DNA of 64,000 bases from Candidatus Omnitrophota bacterium. GTDB lineage: Bacteria > Omnitrophota > Gorgyraeia > Zapsychrales > Fredricksoniimonadaceae. The notes under the pieces are model-generated. The model saw only the letters and a program-made list of their open reading frames with translations. It was not told the DNA's origin and did no database searches. Below are positions 31,600-64,000 of the stretch, in pieces; within the stretch, counting starts at the first letter, position 1, and every line of letters begins with the position of its first letter. Location of the stretch: NCBI GenBank assembly GCA_028865345.1, contig JAGWKL010000001.1, positions 63,296-127,295 of the forward strand. Direction: 5' to 3'. Both the position numbers and the translations under genes were made by a program.

Positions 31600-33015
31600 C
31601 TATGGAGTTGCACTGGCTGCAGAAGAACTCTTGCCTGGCGTGATGATGTGCGGCGTCAGGAAAATGATCACTTCTTTCCTGGTCTTCACCGGGTTGGTGT
31701 TCTTAAATAACCACCCCAGCAAGGGGATGTCCCCCAATAAGGGGATCTTGTTGGTGGTAGTCACCAACTGGTCTGTAATCATGCCCCCGATGACTAAAGT
31801 TTGGCCGTCCTTGATCATCACATTGGTCTCGACCTCTTGATTGCTCGTCTCAGGGAATGGATTGTTCTGAACGGTAATCGTTTGCTGAAGCGTCGAGATC
31901 TGCGGATGCAAATCCAATGTAATAAATCCTGCGTTGTTCACATGCGGTGTCACCTCAAAATTAACACCAATAGGTAATGGGGTAAAACCTGTTACTTGTT
32001 CCTGCCCCGTACTCGAATTAAAAGAATAGTTCGGTACCGGATATTCCAGGCCGATGTTGATCTTGGCCTTTTGGTTGTCCAGCGTCACGATACGCGGGTT
32101 GGAAAGGATTTTGGTCGTGGTACGGGTGCTCAAATATTGCAGGGTCGCCTGAAGCTGGCTGGCATTGATGGTGCCGTACGTAAAGGAACCTGCCGTCGGC
32201 GTCGTGGCCAACGAAGTGCTGGTGGCAGGGAACAGCGCATTACCGGAGCCGCTCGAAGGGACAAAACCTTTCCATGGTTTGTTCGAAAAAGGAAAATACG
32301 TCGGCACGGACCCGCCTGAAATGGTGCTCGTAAAGCCGTTGGTCCAGTCGATCCCCAGGTTCTCGTTATCGCTCAGGTCGGTTTCAACGATCTTGGTTTC
32401 GATCGACACCTCCGGGGTTACCGTGTCAATGGATTTGATGACGCCCCCGATGAGCTCCAAATTACTTTCCAGGTCGCGCACGATGATGGAATTGGTCCGC
32501 GTGTCGTAATTGATGAATCCCCTCCTGCTGACCAGTTTATCGATGATCTTAAGCACGTCCTCGGCTTTGGCATAGTTGAGCGTATAGGTCCTGGACACCA
32601 ACGGCTCCTGGGCCTGCAGAACGGCGGCATTCTCGCGGTATTTCTTCAGATTATCAATGCTCATCACGGTGATGATGTTGCCCTTGCGGTCAAAACCGTA
32701 CCCGTAGGTGGAAAGGATCACATTCAGCGCCCTTTCCCACGGCACGTCCTTGAGTTCGATGTTGACGACCCCGGTCACATCCGGGGCGGCCACGATGTTC
32801 ACCCCGCTTTTAAAGGCCAGCACCTTCAATACGTTCCTGATATCCGCGTCCTGGAAATCCAGGCTGACCAGCCCCCCCTCGGGCGAAAGATCGGCCTGGG
32901 CTGTCCCATGCACGGCGGCAACAGCGGCGGCCGCGGGCCCGTCGGCCCAAATCTTTTGGCCCCAGGTTACGGCCGTCATCAACAGGGTCAGGATAAAAAT
33001 GGCCTTGAACATCAC
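31600..33015 (-). CDS. pilQ: Type IV pilus secretin PilQ
   Basis: Signal peptide, N0/N1 domains, and a C-terminal secretin domain ending ...VIIFLTPHIITP. Confidence 0.85.
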   Translation of the reverse strand: MMFKAIFILTLLMTAVTWGQKIWADGPAAAAVAAVHGTAQADLSPEGGLVSLDFQDADIRNVLKVLAFKSGVNIVAAPDVTGVVNIELKDVPWERALNVILSTYGYGFDRKGNIITVMSIDNLKKYRENAAVLQAQEPLVSRTYTLNYAKAEDVLKIIDKLVSRRGFINYDTRTNSIIVRDLESNLELIGGVIKSIDTVTPEVSIETKIVETDLSDNENLGIDWTNGFTSTISGGSVPTYFPFSNKPWKGFVPSSGSGNALFPATSTSLATTPTAGSFTYGTINASQLQATLQYLSTRTTTKILSNPRIVTLDNQKAKINIGLEYPVPNYSFNSSTGQEQVTGFTPLPIGVNFEVTPHVNNAGFITLDLHPQISTLQQTITVQNNPFPETSNQEVETNVMIKDGQTLVIGGMITDQLVTTTNKIPLLGDIPLLGWLFKNTNPVKTRKEVIIFLTPHIITPGKSSSAASATP

Positions 33016-33356
33016 GTTCCTCCGTTTTTAATTTTCAAAACAAATCTCCGAGGTCCCTTTGAAAACTCCACCTGGTCAAAACTGATGGCCATGACCGTAT
33101 AGGGCCCAAGCTGATCGCCGATCCTGACGACCCTGCCGTTGACGATGGCCATATTGTTCCCGGAGGCGTCCGTCACGATCCCTTCCAGGACCAGGTCATT
33201 CACCGATAAATCTTCATCGTAGGTGACCACCATGCCGGCCGAAGACACTAAAGGTACAAAAGGATCCCGCTTACCGTGATCATCATACACGAAATTCTGT
33301 TGGGCATATACTGAATTCGCTGATAAAAATAGGAACGCCAGGATCAATAGTCTCAT
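33012..33356 (-). CDS. pilP: PilP-like pilus assembly lipoprotein/periplasmic protein
   Basis: Signal peptide, an RDPFVPL motif, a small beta domain, and operon position. Confidence 0.55.
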   Translation of the reverse strand: MRLLILAFLFLSANSVYAQQNFVYDDHGKRDPFVPLVSSAGMVVTYDEDLSVNDLVLEGIVTDASGNNMAIVNGRVVRIGDQLGPYTVMAISFDQVEFSKGPRRFVLKIKNGGT

Positions 33357-33976
33357 AGCTTTTGGGACACCGCCCTGTCCGCCAGAATCAGGTCAATGGT
33401 CAGGGAAAACTCATGGACACGGGGGTCGCTGCCTTCATTTTGAATAATGAAATCCTTGATGATAAAAAAGAGGTTGTCATTTTCCAGCCTGCTCAGGAAA
33501 CGCCCGAAGTTATGGTACCCGCAACGGGCCTTGACCAGGACAGGCAAGGTATAATACTGGGCGCCGGCGGCTTTTGCCAGAGCTTTCTTGCCGTCCCATT
33601 CAGGGTCCAGCTGGTCGATGGCCACCCCGTATTCGTTGGCCACATTGGAAATGGTCCCCAAAATGGCGGAAACGTCCATGGTCGTGCGCACCTTGTCGCT
33701 GAGGGCCGTAAACCGGCCCCGGGTGGCGGCGAGGTCCTTTTTAAGCAGGCCGATCCGAGCATAATCGCTCAAAACCTGCCGGATATTTTCGGAAGTGTCC
33801 TTGATCTGGCTGTTCGTATTGCCTATGGCGCCAAGCTGGGGCATGGCCACAAAGACCGCATCCAACAAAACGATCAGGATGACCGCGACGATCAGCGCCC
33901 CGTAACGGGTCTGCTCGCTTTGCTTATTGAAAGACTCAATGAGGCCTTTAACGTTTTTTATGTTGTTCATGCCCAT
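33353..33976 (-). CDS. pilO: Type IV pilus assembly protein PilO
   Basis: Single TM, coiled coil, and a PilO-like periplasmic domain. Start approximate. Confidence 0.7.
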   Translation of the reverse strand: MGMNNIKNVKGLIESFNKQSEQTRYGALIVAVILIVLLDAVFVAMPQLGAIGNTNSQIKDTSENIRQVLSDYARIGLLKKDLAATRGRFTALSDKVRTTMDVSAILGTISNVANEYGVAIDQLDPEWDGKKALAKAAGAQYYTLPVLVKARCGYHNFGRFLSRLENDNLFFIIKDFIIQNEGSDPRVHEFSLTIDLILADRAVSQKL

Positions 33977-34556
33977 CTTCCAGATTTGCAACGATGGAAA
34001 AATTCGTAACCTCGACGGAATTATCCCGGCTTCCCTGGATGGTATCATTCTCAAGGGAAGAAAACCCCTTCATAAAATTTTTGTCCTTTTTCAGGGAGGA
34101 CACGAACAGGCTGACGGTATTGATCTCATTGCGGGTTTTGGAAACGACGCTGCCCTCAATGGTCAAGCCCGCTTTGTCCAGCGTCATTTTCCTGATCCAC
34201 AGCCCCCGGGGCAGCGCGTCGCTGACGGCATTGAATTTAGGCGCCCAAAGCAGCGATCTATCGACCGTCACGCCGGAAATTGCGCTGATCTTCTTTTTCA
34301 GATCCGCGGTCTCCTTGTGAACGGCGTCCACGGCGGTTTTCTGAAGCGCAATCCTGCGCCACTGTGCATCATAAAAAGACAGCCGCCCCATCCCCGCCAG
34401 CCAGACCGCCCCCAAAAGAAGGTGAACCCCAAGCAAAAGGACAACCACCCCGCCGCCGACGCCCAAAAGCACATCCCTGGGGATGTTGACCGCCCAGGCG
34501 TCCGCCGCCTTGCCGCTTTTTCTTGCCCCTTCCGGAATCAGATTAATGTCAATCAT
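33948..34556 (-). CDS. pilN: Type IV pilus assembly protein PilN
   Basis: MIDINLIPE... N-terminus, single TM, PilN/FimA-like. Confidence 0.75.
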   Translation of the reverse strand: MIDINLIPEGARKSGKAADAWAVNIPRDVLLGVGGGVVVLLLGVHLLLGAVWLAGMGRLSFYDAQWRRIALQKTAVDAVHKETADLKKKISAISGVTVDRSLLWAPKFNAVSDALPRGLWIRKMTLDKAGLTIEGSVVSKTRNEINTVSLFVSSLKKDKNFMKGFSSLENDTIQGSRDNSVEVTNFSIVANLEDGHEQHKKR

Positions 34557-35604
34557 TTGAAAGCCCCAATCCCACGGCCACTCCAAACTGTGCGGCATGG
34601 GCCCGGATGTCGCCCTCCAGGGCCGCCCCTGAAGGCAGGCCGCCCAACGGGTCCCAGATCTTCACCGGCAGCCCCAGGCCTTTTTCAAACACGCCTTCAA
34701 TGCCGCCCAGCGCAGACCCGCCCCCGGCCAGGAAAAGCTCATTGACGCGGGCGTGTTTCTCGGTCGTAAAATAATCGAGGGACAGGCGTATTTCGCTGAT
34801 CAAATTACTGATCGGCACCTCGCAGGCGTCCATGATCTGGGCCAATTTATCCTCCGGCCGGCGCTTGAGCGCCTCTGCCGCTGCGGCATCCAGGCCCAGG
34901 GCATTGGCGATCTTTTGGGTCAACTGGCTGCTGCCGATGAAAACGTCTCTCGTAAAACGCAGCGTTCCGTCCTTAAAGATCATGAGGCTGGCGGCCGACG
35001 CGCCCATGTCCAGCAGGGCCCGGGCGCCGCCCGACGGCGTTGACGCCGGCCCCAGGCGGCCGAACGCGTTGGCGGCCGCAATGGGATTAAGCGTCACGCG
35101 GTTTAATTCCAGGCCCGCTTCTTTAAACAATCTCAACCGTTCGTCCACCATCTCTTTCTTGACCGCGGAGAGCAGAACCGGCATTTTTTTGTCATTGCCT
35201 TCAGGGTCGAGAATGGTGCAATCCGTGTAAATGCTTTTAGGGTCAAAAGGGAAATATTTGTCCAATTCATAGACATAAGATTTTCTCAAGTCTTCCAGGG
35301 ACATGCGGGGAAGGTCGATAAAGCGCATCAGGGTCCCTTTGCCGGATACCGACGAGACCAGAAGCTGGTTGCTCCAATGCAGGCGTTCGACGGCCTTTTT
35401 TAAGGCTGCCGGCGCCCCCTGGGCCTCCAGAGTCTCGACGGCCCAATGGCGTATTTCACTCCCCCCGCCGGCCGCCGGGCCCAATTCCACCGCTTTGACG
35501 GCGGAGGCGCCGATATCAATGCCGATGACTGCAACAGCTGGAGGTTGGGGGATCAAACGATTGACGAACAAAAGATACTGCTCAAATAACTTCTTAAAAT
35601 CCAT
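34549..35604 (-). CDS. pilM: Type IV pilus assembly ATPase-fold protein PilM
   Basis: Actin-like/FtsA fold with VIGIDIGASAVK... 351 aa. Confidence 0.85.
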   Translation of the reverse strand: MDFKKLFEQYLLFVNRLIPQPPAVAVIGIDIGASAVKAVELGPAAGGGSEIRHWAVETLEAQGAPAALKKAVERLHWSNQLLVSSVSGKGTLMRFIDLPRMSLEDLRKSYVYELDKYFPFDPKSIYTDCTILDPEGNDKKMPVLLSAVKKEMVDERLRLFKEAGLELNRVTLNPIAAANAFGRLGPASTPSGGARALLDMGASAASLMIFKDGTLRFTRDVFIGSSQLTQKIANALGLDAAAAEALKRRPEDKLAQIMDACEVPISNLISEIRLSLDYFTTEKHARVNELFLAGGGSALGGIEGVFEKGLGLPVKIWDPLGGLPSGAALEGDIRAHAAQFGVAVGLGLSND

Positions 35605-35752
35605 GTAAATATTTTAACAGATTCCAAAAATGAAAATAGCATTATTCAAATTTTTTTGCCTTGAAACCGGTTTAAAATCCGTTGTAAAGTCCCCGTGAAG
35701 CGGCTTGCGCGCCCGGCCATCTTCAGTTATACTTTGTATACAGATAAAATCC
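35605..35752. promoter_or_regulatory. AT-rich divergent promoter region between pilM (minus) and the Flp-like Cys-rich protein gene (plus)
   Basis: 148-nt AT-rich spacer between divergent start codons. It marks the boundary between the all-minus core block and the accessory locus. Confidence 0.4.
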
Positions 35753-36859
35753 ATGCGTAAAAACGGCCAATCCATCATCGAGTATATCTTGATTGCAATC
35801 CTGGTGATTTTAGCGATTGCATTTATGGGCACCTATGTGCTGCGTTCGGTCAACGCCCATTTCAAAATGTGGGACGAGGGCGTCCGGGATTCCGCCGAAG
35901 AGATCATCAACCAGGCCCCGATCGCCGATGTGCCTAATATTTCATTGAACTGCTCGTGCTCGCAGACCGTGGGGACCTGCGGAAGCAGCACGCCCGGCTC
36001 GCAATGCGCCGCCAATGAGAAAATAATAACCTGGAACTGCAATCCCCAGGGATGCAACGGCGCGCAGGGAAACAGCACCTGCGAACTTGACCCCAGCTGC
36101 TGTAATACGCCTGCACCCCAGGGCTGCGGCAACCATCCTCTTCCTTTCGTTCCTGCGACCAAAGGATATATAGGGACCCCGATGCCATGCCCGACAGGGC
36201 TTTCAGGCACATGTTACCAGGGGCTTGGATCCGGCAGTCCCTGCTATTACGGCCAGCAAACCTACGGCTATGCCTGTGGTTCCAATACCAGCCAGGTCTG
36301 TGTCCCGGACAATTCCTGCCCGAACCCCACATGCACGGGATTTATTCTCTTTTCGAATTCTACCACCTATTGCCCGGGCGCCACCAGCGGCCTGCTTCAA
36401 GACACGCCGAACTACTATGTGGGCAACAATTCTTCGGCTTGTTCAGGCTCTGGAAATTGCGAATTGTATTGTAATGCGCCCTATTCCGTCACCCCGGCGA
36501 ATCCGACCAATCCGACGGAAGCTTCCTGCTCCATGGAATTCAACGTAGCGGCCTCCTGTTGCGGTCCTGATGGTTATGACCCTTCATGCCAGTACAGCAC
36601 CAATAATACAAGCAACCCCACCTGTGCCAATGGCGGATGCTCATGTTGGGCATCCGGCAGCCATCAGATCACTAACAACGAAAGTTTTTCAGTCTGCCTT
36701 GACCCAACCACCAAGCTCTCTTCCGTCTATGCCCTGCCGGTCGGGTCTACGGCGACCAATACCTACAAGAGCCCTGCGTTATCCCCCACCGACGGCGGAT
36801 GCGGAGACCCGGGCCTGCCTTCCCAGACATGCAGCATCTCTGTTAATTTCGGATCGTGA
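35753..36859 (+). CDS. Cysteine-rich (~31 Cys) Ser/Thr/Asn/Gly-rich protein with a Flp-type class III (prepilin) signal peptide
   Basis: N-terminus MRKNGQSIIEYILIAILVILAIAF carries a G/xxxxEY Flp-pilin processing motif with Glu at +5. About ten N-x-S/T sequons. No match to an ordinary pilin length. Confidence 0.6.
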   Translation: MRKNGQSIIEYILIAILVILAIAFMGTYVLRSVNAHFKMWDEGVRDSAEEIINQAPIADVPNISLNCSCSQTVGTCGSSTPGSQCAANEKIITWNCNPQGCNGAQGNSTCELDPSCCNTPAPQGCGNHPLPFVPATKGYIGTPMPCPTGLSGTCYQGLGSGSPCYYGQQTYGYACGSNTSQVCVPDNSCPNPTCTGFILFSNSTTYCPGATSGLLQDTPNYYVGNNSSACSGSGNCELYCNAPYSVTPANPTNPTEASCSMEFNVAASCCGPDGYDPSCQYSTNNTSNPTCANGGCSCWASGSHQITNNESFSVCLDPTTKLSSVYALPVGSTATNTYKSPALSPTDGGCGDPGLPSQTCSISVNFGS

Positions 36860-37920
36860 TGGAGCCCATGAAACACCCCCTTGTCGCCGGCGTTGACGAT
36901 CTTTCATTAGACCAAAGGAAGTTTGATCCATCCCCCCTGGACATCGAACGCATCTGCCGCTTCTTTGGTTTGGGAAAACTCAGGCACTTCGAAAAAGAAA
37001 AAAACATCGTGGTTTCCCATTCCAATTTTTTCGCCTTTGTCCGCACAAACCAGGGGGGCTACGCGCTGAAATTCTACCCGCCGCAGGCGGCCCGGGGCAT
37101 CAGCGTTGAATATGCCCTCAACCGCCTCCTGACCGGGCATCGTTTTGCCACACCTTTAATGCACGCGGGAAAAGACGGCCGTGCCTGGGTTTGCGGCTGC
37201 GGCCGTCTGGCAGCCTGTTATTCTTATATCGACGCAGCGCCGGCATGGCAAAAGATCGGGCAAAAAAAGACCATCCGCGCCATCAATGCCTCGATGTTGT
37301 TGCTGAAGCGTATTTTATCCGCCGCCGGAGAGTCCCTTCCGGTGCAAAAACAGAAAACCTTCGGCGCACAGACCCATGACCTCCTGCGCCTTTCCCGCGA
37401 CCTGCGGCCTTATGACCAACAAGAAACGATCGAGGCCTGCCTCCTGGCGGCCTGCCGCGCCTATCAGCGGCATGAAGGGCTGTTTGTCCGCCGGAGGCTC
37501 CATAACAACGCGGGTTTGACCAACTTTCTCGTCGACAGAAAAACCGTTTACACCCTTGACCTGGGCCACGTGCGGGAAGATTACGCCATAAGCGATCTGG
37601 CCGGCATGGTCATTTCCTGCGTTTTCTTTGACACGCCGCCCCAAACAATCCGGGCCATCATTGAAGACTATTTTGCCCAACATCAAATGACACAGGACAG
37701 CAGCGCGGCCCTTGCCGTACTTGTCCAGACCGGGCTTATCAAAGAATATCTGAAAAACATCCAACGGGAAAAATCACTTGGATCTTCCCTGTATCCGCCC
37801 GGACTTCTGGAAGCCTACAGGTCTCTGCTCGCCGAACGCAAGAAATCCATCAGGACTGTTTTAAAGAAAGGGCTTCTGAAAGGGACGGGGCGCCGGGGAC
37901 GGGAAACAGCGCTGATTTGA
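36859..37920 (+). CDS. Protein kinase-like fold phosphotransferase (APH/ChoK/HSK-II-like)
   Basis: Catalytic-loop-like HNNAGLTNFLVD and a DLG (DFG-like) motif. Start ATG overlaps the upstream stop (TGATG), indicating coupling. Confidence 0.5.
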   Translation: MEPMKHPLVAGVDDLSLDQRKFDPSPLDIERICRFFGLGKLRHFEKEKNIVVSHSNFFAFVRTNQGGYALKFYPPQAARGISVEYALNRLLTGHRFATPLMHAGKDGRAWVCGCGRLAACYSYIDAAPAWQKIGQKKTIRAINASMLLLKRILSAAGESLPVQKQKTFGAQTHDLLRLSRDLRPYDQQETIEACLLAACRAYQRHEGLFVRRRLHNNAGLTNFLVDRKTVYTLDLGHVREDYAISDLAGMVISCVFFDTPPQTIRAIIEDYFAQHQMTQDSSAALAVLVQTGLIKEYLKNIQREKSLGSSLYPPGLLEAYRSLLAERKKSIRTVLKKGLLKGTGRRGRETALI

Positions 37921-55334: not shown

Positions 55335-56720
55335 TCAAACTCCTGCCATGGACAGGACACTGCTGTTCAATTGTTCCAATGTCCGGCTTTTCAATATCAA
55401 TTTGGTCAAATCCCCTCCCTGATAGCGCAGCAGCCGGTCATAATCTCTGATGACTTTCTGCTGCGGCCTGGATTTGAGAAAAGTCACCAACTGCTGCATC
55501 AGGGCAAGGCTGTCCTCCGCTTCCGTCATGTACCAAAAATCAAAGAAAGGTTCGCGCAAACACACCTGCAGGATATCGCGCATCAACGCCGGGCTTATCT
55601 CCATCTGGGAGGGAAGGAAATTCATAATGAACATAAAGGGGACAATATAATTAGCTGCCGCAGGGGATCTATGGCGCCTGTTGAACAGTATCTGCCAGCC
55701 GATATTCGGTTCAACACCCTCTATGGCCCCCACCCGAAGCACCACTTCGAGGTTACGGCGCAGGGCCGAAGGGGTTTCCCCCCGTATCCCCATCATAAAA
55801 GAAAGATGGATTTCCGTTTCTTTCCGGCGGTACTTCAGGAATTCCGCCAGTCTTTTGGGGGAGTTTTCCCCCTTGCGGATCCGCCTTAACAGGGACAAAT
55901 CCACATGCTCCACGCCGAAGAAAATCGTCCGGCATCCTGCCGCGGTCATCCGGCCATAAATATCGGGGTCGATATCGTCCAACCTGGTCTTGCAGCGCCA
56001 GGTCACGCCGGGGTTTTCCCGTTGCAGCCGCGCCAGGAAATCTTCGGTAAAGGGCCTGTCCGAAATAAAATTGGGTTCGCAGAATTCAAAATAAGTTTTT
56101 CCGCTCTTTTCGGCAAAACGCATCCACCGCAGGACCCTGTCCGGTGAATGTCTGGTTATCGCCGGGGAACCTTCAAAAGGCAGGCGGTTGTAACAAAAAG
56201 AACAGTTGGCCCAGCAGCCGAAGGTCAGGTATTCCCAAAAACGGTAATGCTCGTACCCGTATCGCTTGAGCGACGCCCCAAGACCTTCAAAGAAAGCGTC
56301 CTCGGTCAGCCGGGGATTCCCGATATGCCGGAGAATATATTCGTCGATATTCAACGGGCTGAAAACAATGTTGTCCCTTTGGATCAACGAGGTTTCATAC
56401 AAAGAAAAATAAGGAGAACAAATAATGATCTTTTTATCCTTTAACAAAGGCAGATAAAGGTAGAGAAAGATGAGGGACTCGATCTTGGGATAATTATTAT
56501 GGCAAGCCATGGAAACAAGGACGGTGTCTTCCTTGATGCCGGACAGCACATGCATCAACGATGAACGAAAATCAGGGTCCGGGGAACGTTCGATATCATA
56601 AAATCCGTAAGGGTGGCCCAATGCATCAAGGAGGCTCAGGGCCTTCATCAGCCCAACCGGCAAGAGTTCATGATGTTTGGGAATGATCTGAAGGATCGCA
56701 AGCGAACGGCCTTTCTTCAT
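55335..56720 (-). CDS. Radical SAM protein with large N-terminal domain (class B/B12-binding-like candidate)
   Basis: A ~200-aa N-terminal domain followed by GCWANCSFCYNRL (CX3CX2C). Confidence 0.65.
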   Translation of the reverse strand: MKKGRSLAILQIIPKHHELLPVGLMKALSLLDALGHPYGFYDIERSPDPDFRSSLMHVLSGIKEDTVLVSMACHNNYPKIESLIFLYLYLPLLKDKKIIICSPYFSLYETSLIQRDNIVFSPLNIDEYILRHIGNPRLTEDAFFEGLGASLKRYGYEHYRFWEYLTFGCWANCSFCYNRLPFEGSPAITRHSPDRVLRWMRFAEKSGKTYFEFCEPNFISDRPFTEDFLARLQRENPGVTWRCKTRLDDIDPDIYGRMTAAGCRTIFFGVEHVDLSLLRRIRKGENSPKRLAEFLKYRRKETEIHLSFMMGIRGETPSALRRNLEVVLRVGAIEGVEPNIGWQILFNRRHRSPAAANYIVPFMFIMNFLPSQMEISPALMRDILQVCLREPFFDFWYMTEAEDSLALMQQLVTFLKSRPQQKVIRDYDRLLRYQGGDLTKLILKSRTLEQLNSSVLSMAGV

Positions 56721-57595
56721 CGCGCCCTCCTGGTTTTTTCAAGTACAAGGTAACCGCTGTCAGACTCTCCTAAATCAACTTTTAAACCCAACGGGCGCGC
56801 CTGCTGAGCAAGCACGCGGCCGGGAGAAACCCCGCCGCCCATAAAATCATTCCCCGGGTCAAGATAACCGATGATCCGCCCCCCCGGACGTAACAGACCC
56901 GCCATTCCTGCCAGCTTTGCCCGATAGTACTCCAGAGGTTCCTGCCAAAAAATATCCGACAAATAAATCACATCCAATGATCTTTTTCTAAAATAATCCG
57001 GGCTGTCAAATATGTCCATTTGAGCAAACCTCAAAGATCCAAGCCGCGCGCGCACTCTGGCTACAAACGACGGGTCTTTTTTCCAAAACGGTCCGGATTC
57101 CGGGTTTAGAACCATTTCACCCGCAGTAATGAACGAATACTTTTCAGCCAGTCCGGCGGGGGGAAGGATCCTTTCCCCTGTGGCCTTATTGTACAAATAC
57201 ATCTGCTGCAAGTGCCGGAAATTCCTTTTGATCGCTGTGATTTGACCGTGATGCGCCCGGTGCAATTGCTCAAAAGAAGGCATCATATTGTTTTGTTTTA
57301 TAAAAAAGGCCTTGGCAGCGAGCACAAAAAGTTGGGCACAATTAAGATCCACCGCCCACAAAGTCCCTTTCCTGCACCCGGCGCCGAGCATCGTCAATGC
57401 CTGATCGCCGCCGCCGCAGCAGGCCAAAATGTTCGGGCAATCTCCGGCGGCGGTGATCAGCGCCGCAAGCCTGGGGAGAGGTTCGGTAGAATCGAAATAC
57501 CGGACAAAACCCCCGTAACGCTTTAACGTGCTGTTGATCCCCTGAGGCTTGATCACAGCGTTCCTTTTCATCATCAAAGACGGCCCCTCCTTCAA
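56717..57595 (-). CDS. DUF3419/BtaA-like SAM-binding protein (possible 3-amino-3-carboxypropyl or methyl transferase)
   Basis: ILACCGGGDQALTMLGAG...VDLNCAQLFVLAAK resembles the DUF3419 signature (I.SaGdN.L...aVDlNpaQ). Confidence 0.45.
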   Translation of the reverse strand: MKEGPSLMMKRNAVIKPQGINSTLKRYGGFVRYFDSTEPLPRLAALITAAGDCPNILACCGGGDQALTMLGAGCRKGTLWAVDLNCAQLFVLAAKAFFIKQNNMMPSFEQLHRAHHGQITAIKRNFRHLQQMYLYNKATGERILPPAGLAEKYSFITAGEMVLNPESGPFWKKDPSFVARVRARLGSLRFAQMDIFDSPDYFRKRSLDVIYLSDIFWQEPLEYYRAKLAGMAGLLRPGGRIIGYLDPGNDFMGGGVSPGRVLAQQARPLGLKVDLGESDSGYLVLEKTRRAR

Positions 57596-57620
57596 AAAAA
57601 GATCCCCGGGAAACCCTCCC

Positions 57621-59333
57621 TCATTTTTTCTTCAGGCAAAAATATTGTCCGAAAACATCTGTATTCTGAAACATTTTTAAAAACACGACAATGTTGCGTT
57701 TGGCCTGCGTGGAGAGGCCGGAAGTCCTTTGGGCAAGCCTCGTGAGTTCCTGGCCGGATAAAATTTTTCCGCTCAATTGTTCAAAGAAGCGGATCGACAG
57801 CGGGTCCTTGACCGTAAGCGTAAGGCCCTTGCGGCTGGAGCCTAATTTAAGTTCCCCGGCAACGCAGACGCATTGGTCCGGATGAAAATAATACAGGCGG
57901 TCTTCTCCGGAAGGCACCTGTCCCTTCAATTCGATGAACCGTACGATTTTCCAGAAATAGGCCCTGTCCTTGTTGGTTCTTAATTTCAGCTCGGCCAAGC
58001 GGTATAAATCTGAAAAAGAAAGCTTTTTGTCCACAACATGTTGTTCAAAGACCTGCCGCACCTTGGCGTCGGCGATGCGGACCAAGCGCCCTAAGGAACC
58101 TTTGCTCACATAATAAATTTTGTTGGCCTTCTTGAGACGGTCGGCGGCGCTTATGCCGCGGGGCAAAAAAGTATCCTCGCTTTCCTGTTGAAGATGCTTG
58201 GCCCTTTCCGTGATGGGGGAAGGCTTGAAATGCCTGGAAAACCCGCCCCGTAAAATCGTCCGGTTGATCCTTTCATTGACACCTTTATTAAACACGCTTC
58301 CGGAATACCAGGTGCCTATCCCCTCGACCAGCGTGTTGATCAGCGCATTGCAGTTTCTGTCATACCATTGGTGGTCGAATTGACCTTTGTTTTTATTAAG
58401 ATTATCGGCAACGGTGAGCGCTTCCAGCATGGCCACCCCTGAACCGGCCGAATAGACGGGATCGGCAAAACAACAGGCGTCTCCAATGAGGATCCAATTG
58501 GCACCAGTGCATTGCCGGCTGCGCCTGGAATAATTAGGGCGGCAATGGACCTCTTTCATATAAGGCGCAATGGCCCTGCCGGGGTTTCGGGCAATGGACG
58601 TCAGCCGCCAACAGGCGGCAGCATGCTTTCCGGTGTATTCAAAAAGCTCTTTCTCGGACAGAGGTTCGCCCCGATGCAGAAGACCCATGCTTAAAATTGA
58701 ACTGCGGTAAATAGGGATTTGCCATATCCAACTGTCCGCGGCGATCTTATTGATCACCGTCCAATTGGCCCAAGAGTCAGCCTCCCGGTTTAAACTGTCT
58801 ATGGCCCAATAACTCCATTGCGCCTTCATGCCTGCAAACTGGTCGACAGGCGTCACCAGGTTGAGCTTATTGGCGAGGACCATGGCCGGACCGGAACAGT
58901 CCAAAATATATTTTGTAAACCGGTATGTGTTGTGGTCCGTCTTAACGGTGTTCTTTGCCAAATCAATATCAAGAATGGTTTCCTGGCGGATATCGACGGA
59001 GAGTTCCTTGGCAAGCAGTTCTTCAATTTCCCGGCGCTCACAATGAAAGGCAAACGACCTGCCCAATGCCGTAGGAAAATGGCTCGCATACCGGCCATGG
59101 TAGGAATCACAGAAAATCGTCCCCAGCTTTCTGGTGAAGCTTTTCATCTTCACGATTTTAGGGATCAGGCTGATCAAGCCGGGGTCTTCATTGATGAGAG
59201 TAGGAACATGCGATTCCCCTATTTTGTATTGGAAAGGTTTTTTGTCGATGAGGATGGTCTTGCCCAGCAGCTTGTATTTCAAGCCGATCCCGGCAAACCC
59301 GGCGCCTATGATCAGATAATCGCATGTCACCAT
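57621..59333 (-). CDS. Flavin-dependent halogenase (tryptophan-halogenase family) with ~180-aa C-terminal extension
   Basis: GAGFAG FAD motif, K-IGES lysine block, WIWQIP (WxWxIP) and FADPVYSAGSG. Start chosen at MVTCDYLIIGAG. Confidence 0.7.
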   Translation of the reverse strand: MVTCDYLIIGAGFAGIGLKYKLLGKTILIDKKPFQYKIGESHVPTLINEDPGLISLIPKIVKMKSFTRKLGTIFCDSYHGRYASHFPTALGRSFAFHCERREIEELLAKELSVDIRQETILDIDLAKNTVKTDHNTYRFTKYILDCSGPAMVLANKLNLVTPVDQFAGMKAQWSYWAIDSLNREADSWANWTVINKIAADSWIWQIPIYRSSILSMGLLHRGEPLSEKELFEYTGKHAAACWRLTSIARNPGRAIAPYMKEVHCRPNYSRRSRQCTGANWILIGDACCFADPVYSAGSGVAMLEALTVADNLNKNKGQFDHQWYDRNCNALINTLVEGIGTWYSGSVFNKGVNERINRTILRGGFSRHFKPSPITERAKHLQQESEDTFLPRGISAADRLKKANKIYYVSKGSLGRLVRIADAKVRQVFEQHVVDKKLSFSDLYRLAELKLRTNKDRAYFWKIVRFIELKGQVPSGEDRLYYFHPDQCVCVAGELKLGSSRKGLTLTVKDPLSIRFFEQLSGKILSGQELTRLAQRTSGLSTQAKRNIVVFLKMFQNTDVFGQYFCLKKK

Positions 59334-59387
59334 ACATTTGCCTCCTGTAACTGTGGACGGTTTAAGGCCTGAAGCTGCCCGGAACAT

Positions 59388-59583
59388 CGACGACCAAAGA
59401 TCTCAGCACGGGCCGGCAAAAAATGGATCACCCCGAGATACGCTTATGAATGGCGTTGAGTTCCTTGTATTTTATTGGGCCTTGACGGAGATATCAAGAA
59501 AAACCCGCCATTTCCCACGGACTGCCGGCAGCCGCACTTTTGAAAGAACCTTATTCACAAATATGCCCTTTTAAATTAGACTA
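59388..59583. promoter_or_regulatory. Divergent intergenic region between halogenase operon (minus) and prepilin peptidase gene (plus)
   Basis: 196-nt spacer between divergent starts. It is the likely promoter region for the long minus-strand operon 59333 to 52053. Confidence 0.35.
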
Positions 59584-60483
59584 ATGGCCATGACCGCTTT
59601 GGGGGTGATCATCCTGTGTGTCGGTGTATTAACCACGTTTACCGATCTTAAGAACAAAAAAATATATAATCTCCACTTGGGCCTTGGCGCCCTCATGGGC
59701 CTGCTGGCCGTGGCCTACACAGCTCTCAAAGGCCAGGAACACGTGCTTTTTCATCTTGTCGACGGCGCGGTTGCTTTTGGCGTCGGGTTTCTCCTGCACC
59801 GCTCTTCACTTTGGAAAGGCGGCGACGCCAAACTCTTTGCGCTCTATGCGTTTCTGATGCCGCCGCCGGAATTCAAACTGATCATCTTTCCGCAAGTGAC
59901 GGATCTGTTCGCCTGTTCCTTCATTGCAGGCACCATCCTGCTCATACCTCTTCTTATTAAAAATATTATCATAAATCGCGGGACAATTGCAACCCAGGCC
60001 TTTTCCCCGGCCAAAAGGCGCGGCCTCGGGTCGGCCATGGGGACCTTGATTTTCTATTCCTGGGCGCTGTTTCCCATCTATTACCTGGCCCGGCTTACGA
60101 ACCCCGTGGTCATTCTGTTTATCCTTTATTGCTTCTTCAATTGGGGCTATTCCACCAGGGAAATCAAGAAAGATGAAGTGGCGGCGCACAGAAAAAGATT
60201 TTATCTTGAGCTGTTGATCGTATTTTTGGTCGGGTTTCTCAGCCGCCTTTGGCTGGCGCCGGATTCCCTTGATGGGCCCTCCCTTTTACGCTATGGTCTT
60301 ATGATCGTATTTTCCTGCACCGTGTCTGTCTGCATCCACACCGTCCTGGAGCATGTCAAAGAATACCGTGACCGGGTGCCGTTTGCGCCGTTGCTATTTC
60401 TGGGATGCCTGCTGAGTTATACGCCTTTTTTGACATATCTGACGCGCCTGTTGGTCCGGTGGAACATCTTTTTCTACCGCTGA
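59584..60483 (+). CDS. A24-family type IV prepilin peptidase (TadV/CpaA/FlaK-like, no N-methyltransferase domain evident)
   Basis: Polytopic membrane protein with a GGDAKLFA second catalytic Asp motif and an Asp in the first cytoplasmic loop (FTDLKN). Confidence 0.75.
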   Translation: MAMTALGVIILCVGVLTTFTDLKNKKIYNLHLGLGALMGLLAVAYTALKGQEHVLFHLVDGAVAFGVGFLLHRSSLWKGGDAKLFALYAFLMPPPEFKLIIFPQVTDLFACSFIAGTILLIPLLIKNIIINRGTIATQAFSPAKRRGLGSAMGTLIFYSWALFPIYYLARLTNPVVILFILYCFFNWGYSTREIKKDEVAAHRKRFYLELLIVFLVGFLSRLWLAPDSLDGPSLLRYGLMIVFSCTVSVCIHTVLEHVKEYRDRVPFAPLLFLGCLLSYTPFLTYLTRLLVRWNIFFYR

Positions 60484-60524
60484 AGAAAGTTAGCAAAAAC
60501 GGCAAACCGTGTTATTATTAAAAT

Positions 60525-61556
60525 ATGGACCGATTTTCATCCCTTCCCCTGCAGCGGCCTTCGGTGCCGTTGGAGATCATCGTCGAGATCACCGGCCGGT
60601 GCCGGCAGGTCTGCCCTTACTGCACCGGCCCGCGGATACCGGATGTGCCTTTCAAAGATATCAAAGCCGCCCTTGATGAGGCCGCGGGGCTTGGCGTCAG
60701 GGCCATCCGCATTACCGGCGGGGAACCTACCCTGCATCCTGATATCCGCCAAATCCTGACGTACACCAAGGCCAAAAAATTTGACATCATCCTGAACACA
60801 TCCGCCGACAATATCAGCGCGGCCCTGATGAAAACCATCATCGCTACCGTCGACGTTGCGCATGTCTCATTACAAGGCTACGATGAGAAAAACAATGCTT
60901 CCTACACCCGTTCCAAGGTCCCTTTCCTGGATAAAATCAAGAATATCTTTCTTTTAAAAGCTTATCTGCCGACCCTGTGGATCGCCACCGTCATAACGCC
61001 GGCCAAACCGTTAAAGCCCTTTATTCCCATTATTAAAAAGATCCACCCCGCCGCCTGGCTCCTGCAGCGCCCCATCAGTGAGTCCAATGAAGATTTGAAA
61101 AAAATGGACATTCCGTATTACCGTGCCCTTGCGCTTGAGATCATGAAACTCCGCAAAGAAAGGATCAACGCCTTTATTTCCAATCCGATTCCCCTGTGCG
61201 TCGCGGGGAACCTGGATATAGGTCAACAGGTGTTCCTGGGCGCCAAATTAGACGAGGGCCATTTACGCATCGTGCGCAGCGCCAAAGGGTATTTCAAGCC
61301 AAACTACTTTTTAGAGACCAATTTAGGCCGCACCCTTCAGGCTGCGTGGCAGCATCCTTTTTTAAACGACCTCAACCGCACCGACTATCTGCCGGACGAC
61401 TGCCAACGCTGCCCTCTGCTTGAAACCTGCCGGGGAGGCAGCCGTTCCATGGCCCTGCGCACCCACGGCACACCCCTGGCCGCGGATCCTCTCTTCGATG
61501 CCTCTACGGCCCGAAGAGCCCTGTCAAAGTACGATCCAAAACCTCAGCGCCTGTAA
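60525..61556 (+). CDS. Radical SAM protein with SPASM-like C-terminus
   Basis: GRCRQVCPYCTG and a C-terminal DDCQRCPLLETCRGG. Confidence 0.8.
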   Translation: MDRFSSLPLQRPSVPLEIIVEITGRCRQVCPYCTGPRIPDVPFKDIKAALDEAAGLGVRAIRITGGEPTLHPDIRQILTYTKAKKFDIILNTSADNISAALMKTIIATVDVAHVSLQGYDEKNNASYTRSKVPFLDKIKNIFLLKAYLPTLWIATVITPAKPLKPFIPIIKKIHPAAWLLQRPISESNEDLKKMDIPYYRALALEIMKLRKERINAFISNPIPLCVAGNLDIGQQVFLGAKLDEGHLRIVRSAKGYFKPNYFLETNLGRTLQAAWQHPFLNDLNRTDYLPDDCQRCPLLETCRGGSRSMALRTHGTPLAADPLFDASTARRALSKYDPKPQRL

Positions 61557-62721
61557 ACCACTCCTGCGGGACTGAAACATTGTTTTGAGACCGGCGTGCC
61601 GTTTCCCGGATCGCCGCAGCCAGCCCGTCCGCCGTTAAATGATCAATGGATAAAATCCTGGCGCCGATCGTCTCTTGAAGCATGAGCGCCCTTGCGGGCT
61701 GTTCACGGATCGACTGCCGTCCATACCCCTCAAAAGGAACAAGCACCGACTTCTTTTTGTATTTAAGCAGCATGACCGAGGTATGGTATGACGCCAGGGA
61801 AACGCAAACATCGCTGCTTTTGACCAGCCCTTCATAATCGCCCGCGGAGCGCAACAGCACCAGGTTTTTGATTTTCTTCTGACCCATCAGCGTGTTGAAG
61901 AAATACCATTCTTCAGAGGAAGTGGACGGCCCTGCCACCACGGTCACATAGTATTCTTTTCCCAGAAGATCACTGGCGCGGATGGCTTGGGCGATCACCT
62001 TAGGGTAGACCGCCCCGCCTCCCCGGAGTACGGCTACCCGGCAGGCCCCGGGAGCAGCAGGCGGTTTGGGACGATTCGTATCTTCGTCGTCCAGCGCCAC
62101 CTGGCTCTGGGGCAAAAGATATCCCGCAAATTTGGTTTTGGCAGCATGCCTGTCAAAGAATTCCAGATACCTTTGTTTCTCCTGCGGCCGCGAGAACAAG
62201 CCGGCCACGAACTCTTTTTCCTGCGGCGGCGAGAATATAAGGACCTGCTGATACAAGCGCAATATTTTCTGACGCCAGCCGTCATCCGTACCCGTCAATA
62301 AAGGGTAACCTGCCACGGCCCACAAGGGTGTGCCCTGGGCGGACATTTTAATCAGGGATGGGATCAGTTCATGGCGGCATTCGTGGCTTCCTATGGGGAA
62401 AAATTCCGTTATAAAAAAATCCGGGTTCTCACGGGCGACCAAATCCATGCAAGCCCGGGTCCGTTGTTCGGTCTGCTCCTGCATAGGGAAAGCCGGTTCT
62501 TTCAAGAAAGGCCTTTCCGTCGGAGCTTGAGGCAGCGGATAGACCTTGCCTATCCGGTTTATCATGGCCCTGGTCTGGACGGCCCCCGTCTGGATAAAGA
62601 AAACGTCCCCGTCAGGGGACCTTTTTTTGACGGCCTGCGCAACCGCGATGGCGCGGGAGGTGTGGCCGAAACATTCATAATGGGTAAAATAGAGACCCGT
62701 CTTGCGGGGGGAGGCTTTCAT
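61504..62721 (-). CDS. GT-B fold glycosyltransferase (GT1/GT28-like), paralog B
   Basis: It shares FTHYECFGHTSRAIA / FITEFFP / RGGGAVYPK blocks with 45597-46787. Confidence 0.6.
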   Translation of the reverse strand: MKASPRKTGLYFTHYECFGHTSRAIAVAQAVKKRSPDGDVFFIQTGAVQTRAMINRIGKVYPLPQAPTERPFLKEPAFPMQEQTEQRTRACMDLVARENPDFFITEFFPIGSHECRHELIPSLIKMSAQGTPLWAVAGYPLLTGTDDGWRQKILRLYQQVLIFSPPQEKEFVAGLFSRPQEKQRYLEFFDRHAAKTKFAGYLLPQSQVALDDEDTNRPKPPAAPGACRVAVLRGGGAVYPKVIAQAIRASDLLGKEYYVTVVAGPSTSSEEWYFFNTLMGQKKIKNLVLLRSAGDYEGLVKSSDVCVSLASYHTSVMLLKYKKKSVLVPFEGYGRQSIREQPARALMLQETIGARILSIDHLTADGLAAAIRETARRSQNNVSVPQEWFTGAEVLDRTLTGLFGP

Positions 62722-62787
62722 AACCGGTTTGAGGGGGCCGTATTAGGCATGGTCTTAAGAGCAGACCTTAGGAATTGAGGAAAAACT

Positions 62788-63576
62788 CTACTGACCGGGT
62801 ATGGGAGATCCAGCGCCGGGTGCATTGCATGCATCACGCATTTCGCTGTTGACAATGTCCGAACAACTGCCCGTCCCTTGGGCAACCCCAAACCAGGTAT
62901 AAAAATCTTTTGATTCCTGTTCAGGGGTCCGTACGTCTGCGAGGATACGGCATCCGGACAGCGCCCTATACCAGTTAAAATTCCAATTAGGCCCATAGGG
63001 CCCGACATAATCTTTGATATATTCTTCACAGGAGGAGGCTGAACCCTTTAAAGCCAAAACATATGCTATCTCCGCCACGGTATCACCTTCATCGTCTTTA
63101 GAAAAATCCGGGACATGCGTAAAAAATGCCTGCCTTGTGCCGGCACCGGGGGAATTGAGGACAGGGCATATCAGCGAAGCCAGCTCTTCCTGCGTCTTGA
63201 GCGGATATTGACTAATTTGACTGTAGAAGCACTCGGTGGGTTCCTTGCCTGTATTGCCTTGACAGGCAGTGTAAGCGCAAATCCATCGACGGATGCCTTT
63301 GGCCTTGCTTAAACAGCCTTCATCCCCCCCGCAGAGGGATAAGCCGCCCTTCGCCGCCTGAAACGCATTAAAATGCAATTGCTCCATGAGGGCCTGCCTG
63401 GGATCAACCGTCGCCGCAGGTATAGAATCGAGATCAATGGCGGGAGACATCGGGGGCTGGCTCTGGTTATCGGCGTTTTGTTGGGCCCCGGCAACACCTA
63501 CCCCGCCGGCGGCCAAAGACAGCAGCATAAAAAGGGCAAGGCCCCTTAACCTAATATGAAGTATGTGTCGTAACAT
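62788..63576 (-). CDS. Secreted cysteine-rich hypothetical protein
   Basis: N-terminal signal peptide MLRHILHIRLRGLALFMLLSLAAGGVGVAGAQQ and more than 12 Cys. Confidence 0.4.
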   Translation of the reverse strand: MLRHILHIRLRGLALFMLLSLAAGGVGVAGAQQNADNQSQPPMSPAIDLDSIPAATVDPRQALMEQLHFNAFQAAKGGLSLCGGDEGCLSKAKGIRRWICAYTACQGNTGKEPTECFYSQISQYPLKTQEELASLICPVLNSPGAGTRQAFFTHVPDFSKDDEGDTVAEIAYVLALKGSASSCEEYIKDYVGPYGPNWNFNWYRALSGCRILADVRTPEQESKDFYTWFGVAQGTGSCSDIVNSEMRDACNAPGAGSPIPGQ

Positions 63577-63820
63577 TGGAATGGTTGATGCAATTGCCCG
63601 ATGTACTCAGCGCATTCGTGTGGGTGGCCGTATTCTGCGCGGATGTGATATCCGTCATCGCCCCTGCCACGCCCAATGCCGCCACCGTAGACAAGCCGAC
63701 CTTTAAAATGGTTTCCTTGCTGACAAAGCCGTCCTCATCTTTCATCAATTCACCGAGAGACTTGGTCAGCGCCGCGGTCTTGTGAACGGCTTTACTTTTA
63801 TTTTTGGTTTTCTTGTTCAT
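63551..63820 (-). CDS. Small hypothetical protein (89 aa), Lys-rich N-terminus, Thr/His/Asn/Ser-rich C-terminus
   Basis: ORF only. It overlaps neighbours at both ends. Possible precursor-like peptide; see findings. Confidence 0.3.
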   Translation of the reverse strand: MNKKTKNKSKAVHKTAALTKSLGELMKDEDGFVSKETILKVGLSTVAALGVAGAMTDITSAQNTATHTNALSTSGNCINHSNVTTHTSY

Positions 63821-64000
63821 CGCCGACTCCTTGTGTCCAACGTTGGAAGACCTCTACATACTTTTTATCGCCCAGTAAATAAGAAAAAACCGTCCTGAAC
63901 TGGTGGGTCAACACATGCTGCAGGCGCGAATCCCCCTTAGGGACCACGTTTTTCTCCATTGCGTAATTCACCACAGGATCAACCCCCATCCACGGACTGT

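Follow-up and report, generated by a model that had tools for sequence, protein, structure and literature searches.

A pilMNOPQ module, a divergent gene for a cysteine-rich pilin-like protein and a nested accessory island in Candidatus Omnitrophota

The pilus module and the divergent cysteine-rich gene

The DNA analysed here (the window) is a stretch of 64,000 nucleotides, positions 63,296 to 127,295 of contig JAGWKL010000001.1 in the Candidatus Omnitrophota bacterium assembly GCA_028865345.1, and it carries a pilMNOPQ operon placed head to head with a gene for a large cysteine-rich, pilin-like protein. On the minus strand from 31600 to 35604, open reading frames (ORFs) and profile matches give five co-directional, overlapping genes in the order pilM-N-O-(P)-Q, as the first-pass annotation had described them, with pilP named by position and size. 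PilM, an actin-like pilus alignment protein of 351 amino acids (34549-35604), scores 155 bits against TIGR01175 (cutoff 133) and 8.2e-36 against PF11104. PilQ, the type IV pilus secretin of 471 amino acids (31600-33015), scores 317 bits against TIGR02515 (cutoff 284) and contains Pfam Secretin (5.9e-49), Secretin_N and STN domains. The pilO gene (33353-33976) reaches 29.2 bits with PF04350 (cutoff 22); its probable ATG start at 33976, in a frame open to 34054, was taken from the 202-amino-acid orthologue in locus L001. These three of the five products exceed a curated profile cutoff. PilN (33948-34556) reaches 21.6 bits with PF05137, below the cutoff of 22.8, and its orthologues bear a precomputed PilN match. 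Its probable start at 34556, in a frame open to 34598, reads MIDINLIPEG, in which INLIP resembles the PilM-binding INLLP motif.

As type IVa pilus modules go, the operon is ordinary, and earlier work found pili of this type to be common in the Omnitrophota (PMC10066038). Gene order and overlapping frames are those of PilMNOPQ in Pseudomonas aeruginosa, Myxococcus xanthus and Thermus thermophilus; PilM, PilO and PilQ pass their cutoffs, and the clade possesses PilB (with MshEN domains), PilC and PilT-family ATPases. Unlike in those systems, the 114-amino-acid protein in the PilP position (33012-33356, minus strand) has no detectable PilP signature. It is 66-75% identical across 12 relatives and has a signal peptide but no lipobox cysteine in its sequence; it matches nothing in Pfam or NCBIfam, and a profile of 13 orthologues run against PDB sequences found M. 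xanthus PilP (3jc8) at a non-significant E=1.2. The name pilP is hence a positional label, given on position and size only.

On the plus strand, the gene for the cysteine-rich protein occupies 35753-36859 and encodes 368 amino acids. Its start is the ATG at 35753 rather than the TTG at 35705 proposed by the ORF lister, because every homologue begins M-x-K-x-G-Q-S; the spacer between it and pilM is therefore 35605-35752, exactly 148 nt, which bears out the distance given earlier. The protein begins with MRKNG followed by QSIIEYILIAILVIL, a class III (prepilin-type) signal. With a slash marking the cleavage site, the leader is MRKNG/QSIIEY, which contains the G/xxxxEY processing motif and runs into a hydrophobic stretch. 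The N-terminal features general to type IV pilin-like proteins are present: a short basic leader ending in Gly, a Glu at +5 and an N-terminal hydrophobic helix of about 50 residues. The protein contains 31 Cys and 10 N-x-S/T sequons and is high in Ser, Gly, Thr, Asn and Pro.

The protein is 100% identical to hypothetical protein KGJ09_00585 of a Candidatus Omnitrophica metagenome-assembled genome, and it has no match in Pfam, NCBIfam or PDB sequences. The best Pfam similarity of its N-terminal 61 amino acids is to Flp_Fap (PF04964), at 14.3 bits against a cutoff of 32.2, with no match for the full-length protein; PF04021, the archaeal class III signal family, gave no match either. A structure predicted by AlphaFold 2 from an alignment of 66 sequences reached an overall pLDDT (predicted local distance difference test score) of 81.8, with a helix at residues 8-49 (local pLDDT about 88-91) followed by a beta-rich disulfide domain. 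An earlier run with 12 sequences, at pLDDT 53, was not used. No solved structure resembles the prediction, and the pilin alpha-beta roll was not detected in it. The codon adaptation of the gene (0.62, with 11 ribosomal and translation-factor genes of the window as reference) is the same as that of its neighbours (0.54-0.69), and, with codon bias as weak as it is in this genome, the measure is uninformative on expression.

When 1.84 billion cluster representatives were searched with a profile, the family proved to comprise 479 clusters at 50% identity with E<=1e-3, of which 90 remain at E<=1e-30. Lengths range from about 270 to 1162 amino acids, with diverse C-terminal modules. Residues 1-60 are near-invariant, the rest being 34-53% identical between species; Q6, E10 and about 16 Cys are the same in all of 66 members. 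With a conserved helix and, attached to it, an exposed domain that evolves fast, the protein has the look of a pilin. The conserved N-terminal 230 residues give a star-like neighbour-joining tree in which the genomic contexts are interspersed, and this suggests several paralogues per genome; the simplest reading would be that each paralogue serves the machine that it adjoins. Since the family reaches 1162 amino acids with variable C-terminal modules, a tip or minor "modular" pilin is a likelier role than a bulk subunit.

Several members of the family show features of their own. A 539-amino-acid member (P0011, L004 4006-5625) has a Hint/intein-like domain (PF05203) at its end, a sign that the C-terminus may process itself, and another carries Gly-rich repeats in its C-terminal part. 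A shortened gene of 129 amino acids with an altered start, between pilM and a coiled-coil gene (L063 443-832), may be a decaying copy. In both main genomic contexts described below, a gene for an IS200/IS605-type Y1 transposase is found either at the 3' end of the cysteine-rich gene or no more than about 1-2.5 kb from it (L004 5777-6460; L036; L037; L041; L051; L055; L070 11502-12194), and it may have a part in the turnover of C-terminal modules or in moving the gene.

Conservation of the gene pair and of its spacer

The head-to-head pair is not peculiar to the window. Relatives were surveyed in 74 fetched loci, numbered with the prefix L. A scan seeded with PilM, with one genome per species, gave 13 Omnitrophota loci in which PilM is 64-75% identical, 12 of them with usable upstream sequence. 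The cysteine-rich gene stands beside pilM in 10 of these 12 genomes, immediately and divergently in nine and, in L013, with 1.2 kb of inserted small ORFs in between. Two small ORFs at this junction (L013 8923-9742) look DUF4160/DUF2442-like by eye. The gene is absent from the side of pilM in two genomes (L009 and L015). Conjugative transfer genes (TrbI and a VirB11-like ATPase) are inserted beside pilM in L015 (1-7131), so that L013 and L015 both have mobile DNA breaking the junction. In the L015 genome the cysteine-rich gene and its island sit elsewhere, at L003, next to genes for two ATPases of the PilT family, which score 368 and 408 bits (cutoff 319). It is in this relative only that PilT-family ATPases were seen.

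A second scan, seeded with the cysteine-rich protein, covered 44 metagenome contigs, with a divergent pilM upstream of the gene in 27. The second context, found in eight contigs (L037, L045, L052, L054, L057, L062, L064 and L070), places an rsmF-like methyltransferase gene upstream, with a half-secretin of 250-270 amino acids, an amidase and murI beyond. The half-secretin, which lies between the methyltransferase and the cell-wall amidase, consists of the C-terminal half of the Secretin domain only (PF00263, about 56 bits). This context also holds a distant family member of 1162 amino acids (L070). The upstream neighbour is pyrB in two contigs, a TadB-like gene in one, a probable CpaF fragment with a transposase-like gene in one and unknown in one, while four contigs are too short to tell.

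The opposite end of the operon is equally constant. The first-pass annotation had reasoned that the adjacency to the cysteine-rich gene would be incidental if pilMNOPQ adjoined RNase G/rplU in this lineage irrespective of the accessory locus, and this is in part what was found: RNase G-rplU-obg-proB follow pilQ in nearly every relative that reaches that far, with or without the island, and L008 has a rearranged or misassembled arrangement past pilQ. On the far side of the cysteine-rich gene the DNA varies (island, transposase, TonB receptor or pilC) while the pilM side stays the same.

The spacer was aligned from 12 species; it measures 107-160 nt in 11 of the 12 loci and 349 nt in L018, which has an insertion. 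Two conserved elements within it are probable promoters. On the pilM side, conservation picks out an extended -10, TGTTAAAAT (minus strand, 35611-35619), with 6 nt from its end to the pilM ATG. Its position (window 35605-35625) is matched in L001, L004, L006, L008, L010-L012, L014, L016, L018 and L019; the core ATTTTAnCAG is invariant in the alignment, and in the four loci where it was measured the distance to the ATG is 6-7 nt. pilM has no visible Shine-Dalgarno sequence, and the arrangement suggests that pilM mRNA is leaderless. For the cysteine-rich gene, conservation marks a putative promoter on the plus strand at 35705-35733, consisting of TTGCGC (35705-35710), 17 nt and TATACT (35728-35733), and the block CTTGC[AG]C-N17-TATACTTT is conserved across the 12 species. 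A consensus promoter scanner missed this promoter and reported two other weak sites, at about the chance rate.

The earlier suggestion that the shared AT-rich spacer co-regulates the two units is not supported by this layout. Coupling of pilMNOPQ and the cysteine-rich gene through a common regulator would suit the shortness of the spacer and its conserved layout, as well as a moderately conserved central block, GT[TA]AG-N-ATTATTC-N3-ATTTTTT, between the two core promoters. The conserved blocks are, however, explained by the extended -10 of pilM and the TTGC[AG]C-N17-TATACT of the cysteine-rich gene, and the latter travels with its gene to places that lack pilM: it shows no change in the pilT, Tad, pyrB and CpaF-like contexts and has a variant -35 in the rsmF context. 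Coupling of this kind is very improbable and would at most involve the central block, and the two units appear from the conserved elements to be transcribed from separate back-to-back promoters. In L018 (2800-3148) an inverted-repeat insertion of about 230 nt, resembling a miniature inverted-repeat transposable element (MITE-like), lies between the promoter of the cysteine-rich gene and its ATG.

The nested island and the pilus genes beyond the window

The absence of pilB/T and pilC from the window, reported in the first-pass annotation, is correct for the window but, for pilB and pilC, an effect of its edge. No T2SSE (PilB/T) or T2SSF (PilC) domain was found by Pfam in the 30 large ORFs to the right of 30.1 kb; the genes to the left of 30.1 kb, classed by their N-terminal sequences only, are ribosomal and housekeeping ones. 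The pilB and pilC genes lie just outside the edge. Three contigs of the same species (L065-67) match window positions 56591-64000 at 99.6-99.7%, run past the window and carry a pilC gene (protein P0084). Past 64000 they have a radical SAM gene straddling the end of the window, an HxsD-like gene and a gene for a coiled-coil protein, and then pilC some 2.6 kb on. After pilC come mshEN, two pilB genes and a second mshEN, and then ftsW, an HTTM/DCC1 oxidoreductase and, at a greater distance, DsbA. In all, pilB and pilC lie 2.6-8 kb beyond position 64000 in these assemblies. Two genes with T2SSE and MshEN domains adjoin PilC P0084. The pilB orthologues of L004 score 603 and 620 bits against TIGR02538, their best-matching family, below its equivalog cutoff of 675. 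The accompanying claim that the window lacks a pilin gene stands only if the cysteine-rich protein is excluded from the count, since it is pilin-like; it was the sole match in a class III signal motif scan of the window.

The locus of radical SAM and glycosyltransferase (GT) genes is an island nested inside one pilus supercluster, because pilC and pilB follow it in the conspecific contigs. It extends from 37850 to 64000 and on past the window to pilC, measures roughly 28 kb in the window species and encodes about ten radical SAM/SPASM enzymes besides GT2, GT-C (PMT_2), GT28-like, YdjC, DegT and Asn-synthase-like proteins identified by Pfam. Two other species show the same bracketing, with 28.9 kb (L068/L010) and 36.6 kb (L069/L019) from pilC to pilM. 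That the accessory locus is unrelated DNA merely abutting pilM is ruled out, as pilus genes bracket it in three species. Compact relatives without the island (L004/L048, L008, L011, L013, L051, L059, L060 and L063) have mshEN-pilB-pilB-mshEN-pilC-coiled-coil protein, the cysteine-rich gene and pilMNOPQ back to back.

Within the island, at 59584-60483 on the plus strand, lies a gene for an A24 prepilin peptidase of 299 amino acids (PF01478, 28.9 bits against a cutoff of 26.5, residues 9-120), in which no methyltransferase domain is present. Its D21 and GGD81 motif are invariant in four orthologues, and the gene is found in the islands of L001, L065-67, L068 and L069. A PilD with a methyltransferase domain was not found in the window or the fetched loci, where the only A24 peptidase seen has none.

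At the other end of the island, an APH-fold kinase-like gene (36856-37920, plus strand; PF01636 1.6e-9) overlaps the cysteine-rich gene by 4 nt. The same pair occurs in L003, L019 (two copies, beside two cysteine-rich genes), L021, L024, L026, L030, L035 and L045, and the two genes also relocate jointly away from pilM. Next to pilC, the island edge holds radical SAM and HxsD-like genes (window 62788-64000; L065 12165-14011), and in L037 (10732-11280) a protein with HSSGHSSGHSS (His-Xaa-Ser) repeats is encoded nearby; this set is a hint that peptides may be modified by a radical SAM system. The mshEN-pilB-pilB-mshEN-pilC block is directly preceded by genes for DsbA/Thioredoxin_4 and MauE/DoxX proteins, mostly with an HTTM-DCC1 thiol-disulfide oxidoreductase as well (L065 1-5621; L068 1-5655; L074 1973-5621; L004 13073-15417). 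This group of genes would fit the oxidation of an exported protein with 31 Cys.

The machine that would handle the cysteine-rich protein

The whole arrangement can be drawn as one supercluster, with mshEN-pilB-pilB-mshEN-pilC-coiled-coil protein, then the variable island, then the cysteine-rich gene divergent from pilMNOPQ; the window cuts it inside the island. The cysteine-rich gene occupies the slot where pilus clusters usually hold the pilin gene. We hold with moderate confidence that 31600-35604 encodes the secretin and alignment parts of a type IVa-like pilus system that is complete and that the cysteine-rich protein is its prepilin-like substrate. The functional link is drawn because of the prepilin signal itself, because the gene is the sole pilin-like gene and is positioned between two blocks of pilus genes, because it stays beside pilM while its other flank varies, and because after rearrangement it is again associated with pilus genes, namely pilT/pilU in L003. 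Motif scans of the 74 loci agree with this: near the pilMNOPQ and pilBC blocks class III signals belong to the cysteine-rich family alone, the others lying in the Tad-type loci L046 and L071-L073.

A mechanism in five steps may be envisaged, all of it deduced from gene content. The cysteine-rich protein would enter the inner membrane via its N-terminal helix and would be cut after Gly5 by an A24 peptidase, for which the island encodes a candidate. Its 31 Cys would then be oxidised in the periplasm, and island enzymes may glycosylate or otherwise modify it. PilB and PilC would finally load the protein into or onto a filament exiting through PilQ.

Several findings weigh against this assignment. 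Unlike in the type IVa systems named above, neither a G/F-type N-methylated pilin nor a methyltransferase PilD was found in the vicinity of the cluster. Its sole pilin-like gene encodes the 368-amino-acid protein with its Flp-like cleavage motif, and an island of 28-37 kb separates pilC from it. A canonical type IVa major pilin, with G/F(T/S)LIE, was found neither in the window nor in the 74 loci, and the island peptidase has no PilD methyltransferase domain. The G/QSxxEY motif is shared with the Tad pilins of the species and is Flp-like, not of the type IVa kind. Family members occur inside Tad-type loci in L046, divergent from a gene for a single-domain, TadB-like T2SSF protein, and in L073, part of a 931-kb contig whose pilBC block has no adjoining cysteine-rich gene; the member in L058 follows a probable C-terminal fragment of CpaF. 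The conserved order is itself weak evidence, because the genomes are close relatives (RNase G 83-87% identical) and much of the synteny may be inherited, and pilMNOPQ is as constant beside RNase G-rplU-obg-proB, a set of genes unrelated to pili.

In an alternative, the synteny is inherited without function and the protein is a pilin-like adhesin of the Flp/Tad class (type IVc), assembled by the Tad system through the Tad secretin and not PilQ. The window species has such a locus on another contig (L071/L072, 78-19216, in conspecific genomes), with TadB, TadC, at least five small class III pilin-like genes and TadE- and TadG-like proteins, of which the one of 913 amino acids is Cys-rich. Judged from PilC and TadB matches, genomes of the clade hold both systems. 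The pilins of this locus carry the motif [KR]GQ(S/T)xxEY, for example MRARKGQSLVEYILLV in one of 65 amino acids, which has a weak PF04021 match, and KRGQSFLEY in one of 112, and the GQSIIEY N-terminus of the cysteine-rich protein matches them. Its best Pfam similarity there, faint as it is at 14.3 bits, is to Flp_Fap, the island peptidase is TadV-like in having no methyltransferase domain, family members are embedded in the Tad-type loci L046 and L073, and the RNase G-rplU-obg neighbours of pilQ show that an equally conserved adjacency can be obviously non-functional. The species' Tad locus, however, already has its at least five small class III genes, and no member of the cysteine-rich family was found within 10 kb upstream of its tadB, whereas the pilMNOPQ/pilBC supercluster has the cysteine-rich gene alone. 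The gene is also kept beside pilM whether island, transposase, TonB receptor or pilC lies on its other flank, and where it has moved it adjoins pilT/pilU, which are not part of Tad systems. Assembly by the Tad system is on this balance a possible but rather unlikely explanation. Directly after the Tad locus stands a giant ORF of more than 2187 amino acids with a Peptidase_C39 domain, whose equivalent in L073 is annotated at 28,907 amino acids.

The proposal in the first-pass annotation that the protein may be exported or displayed through this secretin rather than by a Tad system is accordingly supported in part: adjacency and the sole class III gene lend some support to its first half, and "rather than Tad" is unsupported, given the members in Tad loci and the shared motif. 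To call the protein a Flp pilin is ruled out by profile score, size and genomic context. Flp/Fap pilins of Tad pili (Aggregatibacter Flp1, Caulobacter PilA) share the G/xxxxEY motif and the hydrophobic helix, a methyltransferase-less peptidase is encoded nearby, and some family members are in Tad loci. A Flp assignment would call for a small mature pilin (about 40-90 amino acids) encoded with tadA/B/C and rcpA; the 368-amino-acid protein is flanked instead by pilM and, past the island, by pilC, not by TadA/B/C. Its leader is only 5 residues long, and its N-terminus stays at less than half the Flp_Fap cutoff (14.3 against 32.2 bits). Mature Flp pilins have 40-60 amino acids, against about 360 for the mature cysteine-rich protein.

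Size also bears on the question whether the protein is part of any filament. Its class III signal could be a cleavable anchor that holds the Cys-rich domain in the periplasm or envelope, as in the archaeal bindosome, or PilBC/MNOPQ could release the protein, acting like the pseudopilus of type II secretion. Family lengths of about 270-1162 amino acids with varied C-terminal modules are too large for a bulk pilin, no alpha-beta roll was detected, and the second genomic context offers an rsmF-like methyltransferase, a half-secretin of 250-270 amino acids and a cell-wall amidase, not a full pilus machine. Against this, some 60 residues at the N-terminus, among them the second, amphipathic half of the helix, are extremely conserved, which suggests helix-helix packing beyond what an anchor needs. 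Most contexts with enough flank (pilM, pilT/pilU, Tad and half-secretin) also hold genes of type IV filaments or secretins, the two pyrB contigs and L022 being the exceptions. A role as a mere anchored or released protein is considered improbable.

Three further known systems offer parallels. Archaeal class III signal proteins (PF04021), which include bindosome proteins and pilins, are processed by PibD/EppA. They share with the cysteine-rich protein a Gln at +1, [KR]GQ, a non-methylating A24 peptidase and the presence of the signal on large non-pilin proteins; the present lineage is bacterial, however, its machine is secretin-based, and the protein has no PF04021 match. The modular type IV pilins PilB and PilC of Streptococcus sanguinis have adhesive modules grafted onto them, and the combination of a conserved pilin-type N-terminus with large variable C-terminal modules, common to both, suggests a filament-displayed adhesin. 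Unlike theirs, the Cys-rich module matches no known fold, and a separate major pilin has no support here.

In P. aeruginosa, pilin glycosylation islands stand beside pilA (TfpO/PilO, TfpW). Here too a variable island with GT-C (PMT_2), GT2 and sugar-modifying enzymes lies beside a pilin-like gene within a pilus region, and the Ser/Thr/Asn-rich protein with its 10 N-x-S/T sequons is, from its sequence, a candidate for glycosylation only. The present island differs in being far larger (28-37 kb) and in containing about ten radical SAM/SPASM enzymes, HxsD-like and APH-fold kinase genes and an A24 peptidase of its own.

These features can be combined into a hybrid type IV filament not recognised before, in which the cysteine-rich family would be the structural or obligatory tip subunit, with a Flp-type, non-methylated N-terminus and a novel disulfide-rich fold. 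It would be assembled by PilB/PilC/PilMNOPQ and matured by the nested island with its own peptidase, glycosyltransferases and about ten radical SAM/SPASM enzymes. This is a bold proposal, and we regard it as doubtful; if it is true, the island enzymes might place glycans or thioether-type crosslinks on the pilin.

The annotation of such loci has a lesson to offer, in that pilMNOPQ can look like an "orphan" simply because of where the edge of a window falls. Omnitrophota are ultra-small, uncultured and probably predatory or parasitic, and their attachment to hosts has been proposed to rely chiefly on type IVa and Tad pili (PMC10066038). That study scored components of the machines; the composition of the pilus and any displayed cargo were left unidentified there, and no protein like the cysteine-rich one was described. 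What is new here is an unannotated, widespread Cys-rich pilin-like family in the pilin slot, together with a large nested modification island that includes a prepilin peptidase. If the link holds, the family and this radical SAM-rich, pilus-embedded island become concrete targets for study, and a Cys-rich, fast-evolving, pilin-like family of 479 clusters is a natural candidate for the molecule by which these bacteria contact their hosts.

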